DNA of 63,586 bases, the filler included, from Octopus bimaculoides (Eukaryota): NCBI RefSeq assembly GCF_001194135.2. It is 4 parts of 4 records of this genome, joined end to end, with 100 filler letters (N's around TTAATTAATTAA, not from the genome) between each part and the next. Parts side by side here need not be neighbours in the genome. Positions count along the whole stretch, not along the records: positions 14,130 to 37,374 come from NC_068985.1; positions 37,475 to 62,295 come from NC_068996.1; 2 more parts are not named here. One strand, 5' to 3'. Position 1 is the stretch's first letter. Every line of letters begins with the position of its first letter. Below are positions 16,135 to 53,484 of the stretch, one piece after another. The translations under genes were made by a program, and so were the position numbers. The notes under the pieces are model-generated. The model made no database searches, was not told the origin of the DNA, and saw nothing but the letters and a program-made list of their open reading frames with translations.

Positions 16135-16137
<3 letters not shown>

Positions 16138-16313
16138 AATTGCAGCGTGGAAGGTGTTTTTAAGCCATTTAAAATAACACACAAAATCCGTTAGATTCAC
16201 TTCAACATTTAAATTTAATTTGTCAAAATATTTTCGTCGCTTTGAGACCGCGACCTGTTCACTGACAAAATTCTGTGCTGCATCTCAGAGATGCAGCACA
16301 GAATTTTGTCAGT
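16135..16313 (-). mobile_element. Probable Penelope-like terminal-repeat (pLTR) fragment with a hammerhead motif and terminal palindrome, flanked by (TA)n
   Basis: Contains the hammerhead fold at 16219-16269 and a 26-bp perfect inverted repeat at 16261-16313; PLE assignment is inferred from the ribozyme architecture. Confidence 0.6.
16219..16269 (-). ncRNA. Minimal type I hammerhead ribozyme motif, G3-C8 core variant
   Basis: Minus strand UUUGUCA-GUGAACA-G-GUCGC(GGUCUCAAA)GCGAC-GAAA-AUAU-UU-UGACAAA: 7-bp stem I, 5-bp stem II, palindromic stem III AAUAUU. Confidence 0.7.
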
Positions 16314-16938
16314 AATATATATATNNNNNNNNNNNNNNNNNNNNNNNNNNNNNNNNNNNNNNNNNNNNNNNNNNNNNNNNNNNNNNNNNNNNNNNNNNNN
16401 NNNNNNNNNNNNNNNNNNNNNNNNNNNNNNNNNNNNNNNNNNNNNNNNNNNNNNNNNNNNNNNNNNNNNNNNNNNNNNNNNNNNNNNNNNNNNNNNNNNN
16501 NNNNNNNNNNNNNNNNNNNNNNNNNNNNNNNNNNNNNNNNNNNNNNNNNNNNNNNNNNNNNNNNNNNNNNNNNNNNNNNNNNNNNNNNNNNNNNNNNNNN
16601 NNNNNNNNNNNNNNNNNNNNNNNNNNNNNNNNNNNNNNNNNNNNNNNNNNNNNNNNNNNNNNNNNNNNNNNNNNNNNNNNNNNNNNNNNNNNNNNNNNNN
16701 NNNNNNNNNNNNNNNNNNNNNNNNNNNNNNNNNNNNNNNNNNNNNNNNNNNNNNNNNNNNNNNNNNNNNNNNNNNNNNNNNNNNNNNNNNNNNNNNNNNN
16801 NNNNNNNNNNNNNNNNNNNNNNNNNNNNNNNNNNNNNNNNNNNNNNNNNNNNNNNNNNNNNNNNNNNNNNNNNNNNNNNNNNNNNNNNNNNNNNNNNNNN
16901 NNNNNNNNNNNNNNNNNNNNNNNNNNNNNNNNNNNNNN

Positions 16939-16972
<34 letters not shown>

Positions 16973-17259
16973 AATAATTCTCTCTTTACAAACTAATTGC
17001 TTCCACAGTTACAAGTAGTCAGGCGTTTCATGATGTGATAAGGGGATGCTGTGCCGTTCATGCCTTCCTTAAAGATATTGGTGTCCTAAAAGAAGCGAAA
17101 TGACTACAACCGCATAGTTGGTTCCAGACTTTGCTTGTTGATAACTTAGCTCAAGTCAATGAAATTAAAGTTTAAAACTAATATTGTAACTTGATGGTGG
17201 CGGCGGCGGTGGTGGTGTCGCTGGAGTCGATCGCAGTGACTGTTGTTGCCGTCGTGACG

Positions 17260-17638
17260 TTGTTGTTGTTGGCACTCCGTCGCTTACGACGTCGAGGGTT
17301 CCAGTTGATCCGTTCAACGGAACAACCTGCTCGTGAAATTAACGTGCAAGTGGCTGAGCACTCCACAGACACGTGTGCCCTTAACGTAGTTCTCGGGGAT
17401 ATTCAGCGTGACAAGGCTGGCCCTTCGAAATACGTGTACAAGAGAAACAGGAAGAAAGAATGAGAGAAAATTGTGGTGAAAGAGTACAGAAGGGTTCGTC
17501 ACCACCCCCTGCTGGAGCCTCGTGGAGCTTTAGGTGTTTTCGCTCAATAAACACTCACAACGCCTAGTCTGGGAATCGAAACAGCGATCCTATGACCGCG
17601 AGTCCGCTGCTCTAACCACTGGGCCATTGCGCCTCCAC
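17260..17638 (-). mobile_element. Full-length tRNA-derived SINE with 10-bp TSD (same family as 6738-7123)
   Basis: Reverse complement of the 6738 element with a (CAA)n tail; TSD CGTCGTGACG at 17250-17259 and 17639-17648. Confidence 0.92.
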
Positions 17639-17639
17639 C

Positions 17640-17770
17640 GTCGTGACGCAAGAAGCCGTTTATTATTATTGGCAGCAGCAGCAAGCAATAGTAGTAGTAG
17701 TCGTAGTGGCAATGATGTTGGTGACCATCTTACCTTTGCGTGCGGAGTGAAGCAATGAAGGGAGGTAATG
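17640..17770 (+). promoter_or_regulatory. Candidate proximal promoter / non-coding first exon of the phosphotransferase gene
   Basis: CpG-rich; TGACGCAA 17644-17651, ATTGG 17668-17672, possible donor GAG|GTAATG at 17765; possible acceptor CCACCAG ending at 18439; motif evidence only. Confidence 0.3.
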
Positions 17771-50508: not shown

Positions 50509-50559
50509 TTGAAGTGGGGGGAACTTCCTTAAATGCCTCTGGGTATTTTTAGTTATGTT

Positions 50560-51060
50560 GCTAGTTTGTGGTGGAGGGAGGGAGGTTAGAGAGGAGGAGG
50601 GATGAGATAATGAAAAGAGGAAAGATGGGGGGAGATTTGTATGAGTTGGGTGAGGGTGAAGTAAGGGTGGTCACAGTATGTTTACTTCAGGAACCAGGTG
50701 TAGAGACCAGAACGATGGTAGTGGTGGTGGTGGTAGTAAAGATTATGGTGGGGAGGTTGATAGTTGTGGTCCTCACTGTGATGGTAATGGCATTGGTGAT
50801 GTTGTTTTTGTTGCTGATGGTGATGATGGTGGTGTTAGTGGTATGGTGGTGGAAGTGGTGGAGGGTGTGGTGGTATCGATGGTAATTGTGTTGTTTGTTG
50901 TTATTGTTTGTTGTTTGTGTTAGTGGATATATTAGTGATGATGGCGGTGGTTGTGGTGGTGATGATAATGATGGCAGTAGTGGTGGAAGTGGTAGAAGTG
51001 GTGGAAAGACAGAGCACAGAGGTGGTGTGTGGGTTGGTACTTGCAGCATAGTGGTGGGGA
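50560..51060. repeat. Degenerate (GGT/GAT/GTT)n low-complexity G-rich region
   Basis: Direct reading. Confidence 0.75.
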
Positions 51061-51544
51061 GAGGGGACATTTGCCATTAATCAGATGGCATTTTTTTTTG
51101 TTTTGTAAGTTTTTCTCCTGAGGTCTGGAATATTTGCCTGTAATGCTATCACTATCTCAGTTATGTGAGGAGCAGCCTGGTGTGTGTGTGTGTGTGGTAA
51201 TTAGACAGGGTGGTGTCAGCCAAGGGGCTTGCCAAGGGACCTGTCACTATCTAATTAAATAATAAAAAGAATATACTGGATTACAGAGTATAGAGTTCTG
51301 AGTTGAAATGGTGGATATAGTTGGGTGTGTATGTTTGTGTGTATAACAGTAATATGCCTAATATGTGTGTGTGTGTGTGTGTGTACATATAAACGGAAAC
51401 ACATACACATGCACCTATGTGTGTGTGTTTAGCTGTATTTTATGTAATATTGATGAAGACAACCTCATCATCATCATCATCATCATCATCGTCATTATTG
51501 TCATTGTTATCATTATTTATGTGACCATTCCATTTTCTCTACAA

Positions 51545-52500
51545 TTTGGATGAATCCCCTCCAAGACAATATCCTGCCACTTGTTGCATTCTCTTTTGAG
51601 AGGTTCATCATCTTGAAATCAGTTCTCACCATTTCTGTTCATGTCTTTTTTGGTTTTCCTTTTGTATGGGATCTTTCTACTGGAATCTTCTGGCTCTTCC
51701 TCACCCCCTAGTCACCTTTCCTATGTCCATAATGACTTGAAATTCCTCCCTTGCACACTACAACTTATTCCCAGTTTCTCATCTCTCATTCATCATCCAC
51801 ACACTTTGACATTACACATCCAGTGAACCAGCCTCTCCTTATTTCTTTCCACACTATCTATATCCCCTGCATACACTATGTCTCACTACCATACAACACT
51901 TCAGTTGGTACACATGCATTGTACAATCTACTCTTCATTTATCCCCAGAACATTTTCCCTCCTTAGTCTAATTCTGACCTCTTTGTATTCTGTATACCTT
52001 TTCCCATCACTGATTAGGACATTTAGGTCACTGGTTCTCTGAGGGTCACCTTGTGCATTTACGACAGGCAAAGTCTCAATTCAGTACCAACCTACCTTTG
52101 TTTCCACAACACCTCTTCTGCAGACATAAATTACATAGAATATACTTTATAGAATTTTTCTCCATTCCTTTTCTGCAAATTGAGCACAGTCATTTCCTTG
52201 ATGGTACCAGTTTTGTCTTCTAATAAAACTTTAATCCTTGCTAAGTTTATTCCGAAGCCACTTTGGTTTAAATATTCTTTCCATTTCTGGAATTTTTAAT
52301 CTAAATCATCCAATGTCTCTGTTACAAGCACTTGGTTATCAGTACAGAAAAGCTCCTATGAGCAGCTAGTCTTAAACAACTCTGTTATGGTCTAGAGGAC
52401 TATAATAAATTGCAGGGTGCTAAGAAGCAAGCTCTAATGGACACCTACTTACAATTCCACTTTCTACTCACACTAAAAACATTAATATTTATTCGGGATA
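51545..52500 (-). mobile_element. Decayed RTE-type LINE, 3' half
   Basis: Minus strand FIIVL*TITELFKTSCS*ELF.TDNQVL (degraded ELLYADD), GINLARIKVL, Cys-rich segment, SRLYNACV..EVLYGSET. Confidence 0.72.
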
Positions 52501-52917
52501 TTGTACTTAGTACAAAAATGCTAACCATTGTATGGGGAGTAGTTTTGGAAGAATAGTTTTGCTATCATTTATAATCACAATCTAGTTCGTTGAAAGTATC
52601 TCCACAAAAGTTTTTAAAGAAGTTGTGTAATTCTGTCACCAAACCGTATATAGGCCCTCATCCTGTGCCGCTTATGGTAACTCACTTTGCATCTCTTTTT
52701 TTATTTTCTCTCCCCACCGTCCATATCAACAAACCAACCATCATTCACAGCAGCTATTATTATGTATTAGAAATATTGCATTTCTAAATCTCTCAGTGAG
52801 ACTTATACAGTAGCAGCATAACTTATAGAATTTCAAGTGAAATAAATTCACTGATTTACAAAATTAGAAATATTTTCAACAGTGAATAAGCATCAACAGT
52901 TAGCAAAGCCAAGCTAC

Positions 52918-52960
52918 TCCAGACTGATGAAGGGCAACTACCCCGAAACTAGTCTCTGGA
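52918..52960 (+). ncRNA. Minimal type I hammerhead ribozyme motif, canonical core
   Basis: UCCAGA-CUGAUGA-A-GGG(CAACUAC)CCC-GAAA-CUAG-UC-UCUGGA; stem I extends (CAAAGCCA 52904-52911 with UGGCUUUG 52964-52971); palindromic stem III ACUAGU; predicted cleavage after GUC at 52954. Confidence 0.85.
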
Positions 52961-53484
52961 TGCTGGCTTTGTTGGGTGGAGGTGCTTATCTCCCCTGCTT
53001 GAAAACCTAAGGACACAGAACACTTGTGTCACATAACCAACTGCAAATTATGTTTCCTAGGGCTAAATAGCAGTAGCATTCTTCCCTTTCCTGGGACTGC
53101 CACATTAAGTTGGCAACAAACCATCACTTTATTATAATATAGAAATTGTAAAAAACAATATATTTCATGCAACCAGGGTTGAGCATAAGGTTGATGAGGT
53201 CCAGGTGAACCAGTTGGCCTAGACCTAATAAATAGAGGAACCCTTCACCTACCAGTTAGAGGAAATAGTAGAACCTTTGATAAAGAATTAACATTTTCTT
53301 ATGGATCATTCTTGTTCCTTTATGCTGCTCTTTTAAATGTGAACACTACATATCAAATATTTACATTAAATGTACATGTAGAGAGATGTAAGACATGTGT
53401 AAATCATATGTATTTAGTTCTAACATATTTAATGACTGATTAGAAATAAATCTTTATTCTGTTCACAGCCTGGACCTATGACAG

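Follow-up and report, generated by a model that had tools for sequence, protein, structure and literature searches.

The window, that is, the whole 63,586-nt stretch of Octopus bimaculoides DNA analysed (filler included), holds three minimal type I hammerhead motifs, H1, H2 and H3. We conclude that each is probably a solo pLTR end, a truncated copy of the terminal repeat of a Penelope-like element (PLE), with the three stemming from different PLE families that inserted independently, the PLE parentage of each cassette being one that we infer; the family of H1 is very abundant and carries a G3-C8 pair in its core. The locus itself is unremarkable, repeats having piled up around a lipid-synthesis gene, and most of the overall picture had already been published between 2014 and 2024. 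The features, in order of position, are as follows.

16106–16134, no strand: pure (AT)14.5 microsatellite, adjoining H1 at its 3′ end.
16135–16287, minus strand: H1 cassette, by read depth a copy of a high-copy short repeat and likely a 5′-truncated pLTR of a PLE, consisting of the hammerhead and a 91-nt 3′ tail.
16219–16269, minus strand: H1 minimal type I hammerhead; core GUGAACA (G3-C8) at 16262–16256, extra G, stem II of 5 bp, palindrome AAUAUU, stem I of 7 bp, predicted cut after U17 at 16226 (UUU).
16261–16313, no strand: perfect fold-back of 26 bp that marks a 5′ inversion of the H1 copy at its 5′ end, from sequence and folding.
18501–18740, plus strand: first coding exon (residues 1–80) of the host choline/ethanolaminephosphotransferase gene; no later exon was found in the window.
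40154–41303, plus strand: decayed ORF fragment of Penelope/Poseidon type by protein comparison, from the N-terminal region to just past YVDD, broken by stops and frameshifts, shortened by an internal deletion and without thumb or GIY-YIG.
43082–43118, plus strand: H2 minimal type I hammerhead-like motif; core CUGUUGA (A6U) at 43087, extra A, stem II of 4 bp, palindrome ACGU, stem I of 5 bp, predicted cut after C17 at 43113 (GUC).
43119–43208, plus strand: 3′ tail of H2 from its sequence, up to a degenerate AT-rich array at 43209–43283.
52918–52960, plus strand: H3 minimal type I hammerhead; core CUGAUGA (canonical) at 52924, extra A, stem II of 3 bp, palindrome ACUAGU, stem I of 6 bp, predicted cut after C17 at 52954 (GUC).

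Both strands of the window were scanned with a descriptor, written after the motifs had been seen, that allowed a 3:8 swap or a change at position 6, 0–1 extra nucleotide and a palindromic stem III. The scan returned exactly these three motifs, as compared with a mean of 0.017 per shuffle (maximum 1) at the loosest setting in 60 block-wise dinucleotide shuffles and none at two stricter settings, which rules out chance look-alikes as their source. All three have the extra nucleotide 9/10.1, the pair G10.1-C11.1 and a palindrome around positions 15.2–16.2, in a type I topology with stem I of 7, 5 and 6 bp and stem II of 5, 4 and 3 bp in H1, H2 and H3, respectively, and with at most one stem III pair in the monomer. 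The core CUGANGA...GAAA, with a Watson–Crick 3:8 pair and an NUH triplet, is complete in H3; H1 has the pair as G3-C8 and the triplet UUU, while H2 retains C3-G8 but carries A6U. The shared architecture put forward in the original prediction is thereby confirmed, as is its warning that a search for CUGANGA alone would overlook two of the three (H1 and H2). MFE folds recovered stems I and II of H1 (z −2.6), those of H2 and H3 not being significant, and of 187 Rfam rows at E ≤ 5, the 150 listed include no hammerhead family. A looser scan added a single motif, at 58433, which is implausible.

The features of the motifs match those published for the minimal hammerheads (min-HHRs) of metazoan PLEs, in support of the earlier assignment to this class. 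Such min-HHRs fall into several unrelated families per genome, mostly as single dispersed copies, and a U3-A8 covariant family is among those described; type I topology, the extra nucleotide 9/10.1, G10.1-C11.1 and a palindromic minimal stem III are common to them and to H1–H3 (PMC4209133). The published families are mostly solo, as are the cassettes here, none of which was found inside a PLE; the palindrome ACUAGU of H3 is that of the Adineta vaga(1) row, and ACGU, in H2, is the commonest type. The 56 representative rows of that paper include none with G3-C8 or U6, and no cephalopod. In the genome of Octopus vulgaris PLEs make up 6.83%, in 190 families (PMC13282606). Within the window, we found no PLE ORF adjoining any of the three cassettes and no second copy of H2 or H3.

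The 3′ ends of two cassettes are consistent with the same parentage. In PAc (Poseidon, Anolis carolinensis) the cut lies at +26 and reverse transcription starts at +111–118, that is, 85–92 nt apart, which compares with 91 nt from the predicted cut site to the microsatellite in H1 and 95 nt in H2; PAc targets are AT-rich, as are the surroundings of H1 (PMC11167929). Two cassettes had been predicted to end 90–96 nt past the cut against (TA)-rich microsatellites. This holds for H1, where the array is the pure (AT)14.5, and in distance for H2, although there the array is degenerate (84% matches) and the first pure (TA)4 comes 105 nt past the predicted cut. Targeting of (TA)n, likewise proposed, fits H1 well, with microsatellite on both sides (further AT runs lie at 16315–16324 and 16939–16971, flanking an N gap) and TA-rich loose ends in other copies; it is weaker for H2 and absent for H3, which has no microsatellite within 200 nt of its predicted cut site. 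An insertion bias of this kind has already been reported for Neptune and Naiad PLEs, and inverted 5′-truncated copies are typical of PLEs, as in the inverted 5′ fold-back of H1 (PMC8557442). In a read-through transcript this fold-back would, by prediction, tie up the 5′ arm of stem I, and the loose ends of other H1 copies among the reads show another fold-back point, and sequence running on upstream.

The cassettes do not form a single system. Pairwise comparison of the 3′ tails gave scores reached by 14, 80 and 142 of 300 shuffles, only that of H1 and H2 being borderline, with otherwise no detectable relation. The stem I arms make 0–1 pairs between families, as against 5–7 within a family, so that H1–H3 are unable to complement each other. 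The incompatible arms and unrelated tails rule out one three-ribozyme system and indicate a co-occurrence of repeats.

The abundance of the H1 family was assessed by placing sequencing reads on a 451-bp stretch around H1, using DNA runs X1 and X13, which carry two organism labels. The stretch drew 9,180 contigs in X1 and 6,345 in X13 (the other label), with depth concentrated on the cassette; in X1 the summed depth was 0.4–2.4 million over 16142–16285, whereas the left flank did not exceed 0.14 million. The family to which H1 belongs is thus dispersed, very abundant and ∼150 bp long, and is present under two organism labels. There was no G>C place in X1 or X13, and the sole C>G place was 15895; the canonical letters C3 and G8 therefore each account for <5% of depth in both DNA runs, and G3-C8 is the state of the H1 family rather than decay of one copy. 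The dispersed multi-copy family with a non-canonical core that had been predicted is thus borne out for H1. Among the 40 of 168 variant rows listed, covariation in the stems was sought and no double-sided change was seen; the two stem changes retain a G-U pair, one of them at a CpG.

As a natural core, G3-C8 is apparently unreported, and we have found it in print only as a laboratory mutant. In PAc, the engineered C3G/G8C double mutant partially restored cleavage, as distinct from the natural family state in H1 (PMC11167929). Natural variants with U3-A8 covariation at 3:8, and with a slow A6C at position 6, are kin to the changes in H1 and H2; the available text of that study describes neither G3-C8 nor A6U, and five core strings gave 0 matches in 11 supplement files (PMC3088659). 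We suggest, tentatively, that an octopus family with perhaps ∼10^4 copies may carry a working natural G3-C8 hammerhead, the classic laboratory rescue mutant, its source being either a PLE that targets (TA)n or a short non-autonomous element descended from one; it would then be the first natural massively amplified case, overlooked by CUGANGA and U3-A8 descriptors.

Alternatively, the variant cores could be catalytically dead relics, cleavage not being needed for PLE insertion, with G3-C8 and U6 having drifted in a founder that was then amplified passively. This concerns activity and is compatible with a PLE origin. HHR-dead mutants do insert in vitro (PMC11167929), min-HHRs have low activity even as dimers (PMC4209133), and the H1 triplet is UUU. 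Changes at A6 lower the rate, as reported for A6C (PMC3088659), and H2, with its A6U, may for that reason be dead. In one RNA run, a weak test, no read ends piled up at the H1 cut site. However, the PAc ribozyme, which is active in vitro, likewise lacks cut-site ends in RNA-seq, and G3-C8 requires two specific changes that together restore a Watson–Crick pair, either of which alone abolishes activity (PMC11167929). Moreover, H1 is otherwise intact in its core, its two stems and its palindrome, and U17 occurs commonly in the 56 representatives published (PMC4209133). We regard dead relics as somewhat unlikely overall, and more likely for H2 than for H1.

In a second alternative, H1 and possibly also H2 would not be by-products of full-length insertions that were truncated; each would be a non-autonomous unit, SINE-like or retrozyme-like, that is transcribed on its own and that a PLE protein mobilizes in trans. 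Animal non-LTR retrozymes are, like H1–H3, short, non-coding, hammerhead-bearing and PLE-related (PMC7229834; 10.64898/2026.07.22.740005), and a 2026 preprint argues for their descent from pLTRs (10.64898/2026.07.22.740005). H1 is a short unit at very high abundance, over the 16 nt upstream of stem I its depth drops ∼2.5-fold, and it occurs in RNA runs with no ORF link found. Against this, its 5′ ends are ragged, running into further shared sequence or fold-backs, and the RNA reads come equally from both directions, with 53 of 1,389 at least 99% alike, as expected from passive co-transcription of many loci. Retrozymes, as described, are tandem repeats with canonical type I motifs and abundant circles (PMC7229834), whereas H1–H3 are single minimal motifs, each present as one copy in the window: no unit-length head-to-tail joint was present among the 15 of 48 H1 joints listed, and back-joints in ordinary RNA-seq were single-contig or 2-read only. 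The tandem copies and circular RNAs that the original prediction had proposed to look for were thus not found in the window or in ordinary RNA-seq, nor was a cut-site end. An independent unit of this kind seems to us improbable.

Searches for a protein link to the cassettes were largely negative. The open 50-codon frame through H1 encodes no PLE protein (0 of 7 candidates relevant), and its sole match, P0106, was rejected as a chance match to the Ser/Thr-rich repeat of a repetitive protein. In PAc the ORF starts in stem II (PMC11167929), whereas for H1 neither a start codon nor a protein link was found. At the ends of 99 RT relatives, five pattern matches to hammerhead-coded peptides were seen, of which one (P0022, with a canonical-type frame) was convincing; these are too weak for use. 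Pattern scans gave no hit for H1 or H2 in viral or metagenome contigs and none for H1 in prokaryote genomes, collections that probably lack octopus DNA.

The PLE RT fragment predicted ∼1.7 kb upstream of one cassette, on the same strand, is real; 1.78 kb separate its end from the H2 core, and it shows 51–63% identity to full-length or near full-length relatives. Of 99 such relatives, 27 have an EN core, with both His in 25, the window copy itself being without EN. A CX2-5CxxC linker upstream of GIY-YIG, the mark of Neptune/Nematis, occurs in none of the 27, and it is by this linker feature, rather than by a tree that includes named references, that we class the fragment as Penelope/Poseidon type. 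The fragment and H2 share a strand and stand in the order expected if a single PLE insertion had been interrupted, H2 being its downstream pLTR, and two N gaps lie between them. In the interval from 41303 to 43087, where about 290 codons would be needed, tblastn with the 99 relatives (E ≤ 1) found no remnant of a thumb or an endonuclease; the gaps total 326 nominal bases, and a dispersed repeat and duplicated low-complexity DNA lie in between. The linker that these relatives lack is tied to (TA)n-biased Neptune-type elements (PMC8557442). Naiads are without canonical hammerheads (PMC8557442). A single interrupted insertion is thus highly unlikely and the proposed linkage is not supported: the RT at 40.2–41.3 kb is a separate decayed insertion and probably not the parent of H2.

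H2 and H3 are on the gene's strand, in sense within the long intron that follows the first coding exon, with no later exon found in the window. That they are host-retained ribozymes cutting the phosphotransferase pre-mRNA is scarcely credible, given that their stem III cannot close in the monomer, their stem I arms are mutually incompatible and H2 has A6U.

Our preferred reading, truncated PLE terminal repeats, suggests the following mechanism. The PLE protein would nick AT-rich or (TA)n DNA, and reverse transcription would begin inside the element RNA, ∼90 nt downstream of the point at which the hammerhead cuts. The new strand would often stop short or turn back on itself soon after the ribozyme had been copied, which would give stubs of ∼150 bp whose 3′ end is fixed and whose 5′ ends are ragged or inverted. 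Where a tandem element is intact, slow cutting might proceed as a same-family dimer via the palindromic stem III, or with the element's protein, and G3-C8, which retains the 3:8 pair, may hence have partial activity. By nearest-neighbour energies the double hammerhead is not favoured over two monomers for H1 (−23.3 versus −26.9) or H2 (−6.7 versus −12.3), and is a tie for H3 (−19.6 versus −19.3). The lone copies in the window are probably silent.

That the G3-C8 swap is fixed lends support from nature to the 3:8 tertiary pair, and it suggests continuing selection on the PLE ribozyme even though cleavage is dispensable for insertion in vitro. If the U6 of H2 is also a family state, octopus PLE hammerheads would tolerate two further core changes. 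Given the G3-C8 family, genome-wide hammerhead counts in cephalopods are underestimates, and the purpose of PLE hammerheads becomes testable with thousands of natural copies.

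A descriptor scan of both strands of the window returned exactly three minimal type I hammerhead motifs, H1, H2 and H3:

H1, minus strand: core GUGAACA at 16262–16256, palindrome AAUAUU, U17 at 16226
H2: core CUGUUGA at 43087, palindrome ACGU, C17 at 43113
H3: core CUGAUGA at 52924, palindrome ACUAGU, C17 at 52954

All three carry a single additional nucleotide ahead of G10.1–C11.1. With 60 shuffles giving a mean of 0.017 motifs, using a descriptor composed after the motifs had been seen, the three hammerheads of the original prediction are upheld. No second copy of any of them was found in the window, and an Rfam search returned no hammerhead family among the 150 of 187 matches listed. 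Their traits match those of minimal hammerheads of Penelope-like elements (PLEs) in the available part of PMC4209133, and the elements are of an already known kind.

H1 is a member of a high-copy family. The stretch 15870–16320 was present, whole or in part, in 20 runs from nine studies among the matches listed, and four runs were aligned to it at 80% likeness. The proposal of dispersed ribozyme-bearing families stands for H1, with 9,180 records in X1 (DNA contigs) and 6,345 in X13 (which bears a different organism label), counts that also take in a second, rarer repeat at 15870–16094. Summed depth in X1 was 1.3–2.4 million over 16190–16269, and single listed contigs had a depth of 27–53; this ratio suggests ∼10^4 copies, summed depth not being equal to copy number. 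The family boundary lies between 16095 and 16144, in a zone masked as repeat. The second family, immediately left of the (AT)n tract, has an X1 summed depth of at most 0.14 million.

In these alignments a canonical C3–G8 core would read as C>G at 16262 plus G>C at 16257. In X1, X13 and X16, G>C occurred nowhere and C>G at a single place in each, 15895; C3 and G8 therefore fall below the 5% threshold and G3–C8 is the family state, in keeping with the diversified core claimed for H1. G>T places were absent from X1 and X13, which excludes A8; U8 or A3 may be present at 5% or above, given the 40 of 168 variants listed. The RNA run X21 had three C>G and two G>C places, their positions only partly among those listed. 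Within the motif, the same 40 of 168 variants include two positions in loop II as well as 16223 in stem I (U-A to U-G, 41% in X1) and 16239 in stem II (G-C to G-U). All are compatible with a hammerhead structure, but as one-sided transitions, two of them at CpG, they are no proof of selection.

In the ∼6% of X21 examined, 1,389 reads lay on the H1 stretch, with a depth of ∼400 per direction over the cassette (hammerhead plus 3' tail); 53 reads were at least 99% alike, and 75% continued into unlike sequence. This pattern fits passive co-transcription of many loci. Read ends piled up at no place in X21, the cut site included. This is a weak test, because PAc, the Poseidon PLE of Anolis carolinensis, likewise left no cut-site ends in RNA-seq despite cutting in vitro with its own protein (PMC11167929, in the portion available). 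At 16253, 80 RNA reads carry one diverged variant upstream of stem II (agreement 0.95), probably from a single, well-expressed locus whose H1-family motif has degraded.

Two cassettes had been described as ending directly against (TA)-rich microsatellites, 90–96 nt beyond the cut site. H1 does so at 91 nt, against a pure (AT)14.5, and H2 at 95 nt, but against a degenerate AT array; the broader (TA)n association holds up well for H1, less so for H2 and not for H3, which has no (TA)4 within 200 nt. About 6% of window positions have a (TA)4 tract within 100 nt. The spacing has a known explanation, since in PAc the cut at +26 and the start of reverse transcription at +111–118 are 85–92 nt apart, resembling the H1 and H2 tails; there, reverse transcription begins in an AC-rich stem loop once AT-rich DNA is nicked (PMC11167929, same portion). 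H1 lies between two AT runs, and in 37 X1 contigs the loose ends, at 16283, are TA-rich, with low agreement (0.42). At its 5' end the H1 copy has a perfect 26-bp fold-back (16261–16313) that should, by folding prediction, tie up the stem I 5' arm; further family copies extend upstream, and a second fold-back point occurs in 127 RNA reads. The accessible text of PMC8557442 gives a (TA)n bias for Naiad and Neptune PLEs, and inverted 5'-truncated copies as typical of PLEs.

The proposed link between H2 and the decayed reverse-transcriptase (RT) fragment at 40154–41303 (plus strand) was not supported. The fragment aligns to residues 174–556 of an 847-residue relative at ∼51% identity (up to 63% to others), carries stops, frameshifts and an internal deletion, and ends right after YVDD. 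None of 27 relatives having an endonuclease core has a CX2-5CxxC linker, and the fragment therefore classes by sequence as Penelope/Poseidon-like. Thumb and endonuclease would need ∼290 codons; 41303–43087 gave no alignment to 99 RT relatives (E ≤ 1), and holds a dispersed repeat (41496–41665), duplicated low-complexity DNA and gaps of 200 and 126 N. Origin of the fragment and H2 from one element is unlikely, although the gap sizes, being estimates, leave it a small chance. RT and hammerhead neighbours are to be expected, since PLEs make up 6.83% of the O. vulgaris genome, in 190 families (PMC13282606). Low-complexity near-duplicates at 41955–42130 and 42470–42600 bracket (GA)n-gap-(CT)n, possibly an assembly artefact. 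On the strand opposite the start of the RT fragment, a CUGAAGA...GAAA stretch (40090–40130, minus strand) fails both descriptors and could be a decayed inverted PLE terminal repeat (pLTR), or chance.

The window consists of animal DNA that is rich in AT and in microsatellites and is broken by 19 N gaps. An exon at 18501–18740 (plus strand) codes residues 1–80 of a choline/ethanolaminephosphotransferase; its product shares 99% identity with a protein labelled Octopus vulgaris, which marks the window as octopus DNA. No further exon of this gene was found downstream in the window, so the RT fragment, H2 and H3 probably lie in sense within one long intron; H1 is antisense, ∼2.2 kb 5' of the start codon. 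Also present are a dispersed family (6738–7125, 17262–17638, 2322–2613 and 26910–27199; 75–89% identity between copies), many additional SINE-like families, ∼20 tandem copies of a 15/16-nt unit (34181–34493), a (GAA)n-type array of ∼880 bp (49618–50501), and transposase-like fragments at 23987–24352 (minus strand, an HTH match) and 14300–15036, both of Tc1/mariner-like appearance.

U3–A8 cores occur naturally (PMC4209133, PMC3088659) and A6C is slow (PMC3088659), according to the parts available. G3–C8 is in PAc an engineered, partly active double mutant (PMC11167929, in part), whereas in H1 it is the natural family state. Neither G3–C8 nor the U6 of H2, known from one copy alone, is among the 56 representative PLE motifs in the available part of PMC4209133; nor did literature text searches or the supplements of PMC3088659, as far as accessible, yield a natural G3–C8 core. 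The O. vulgaris repeat paper (PMC13282606) mentions no ribozyme in main text or supplement. A literature search on hammerhead plus octopus found no description among the four entries listed. The Lunse 2017 set reportedly comprises about 150,000 PLE-associated hammerhead variants; priority for natural G3–C8 is uncertain, our search having covered material other than those alignments. Judged from sequence, G3–C8 in H1 is probably an unreported family-level core variant of a putative ribozyme.

Stem III cannot close in a single H1, H2 or H3. Two copies forming a double hammerhead would pair with each other, 5' arm to 3' arm; stem I arms form 0–1 pairs across families, so each motif needs a same-family partner, and folding energies for H1 and H2 do not favour a dimer. 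In H1 (16135–16284, minus strand) and H2 (43035–43421, plus strand) a frame stays open across the hammerhead as far as the end of the element, sharing register with a hammerhead-like peptide at the N-terminus of the RT relative P0022; no protein relatives of the H1 frame were found. No PLE open reading frame was tied to any cassette, in the window or through the H1 frame search; architecture, end geometry and inversion point to PLE parentage. The original interpretation holds in part, for PLE-type motifs and one high-copy family and not for the RT–H2 link. Reverse transcription primed internally and then aborted early would leave solo pLTR stubs, and we think it rather likely that H1, H2 and H3 are such stubs, silent in place.
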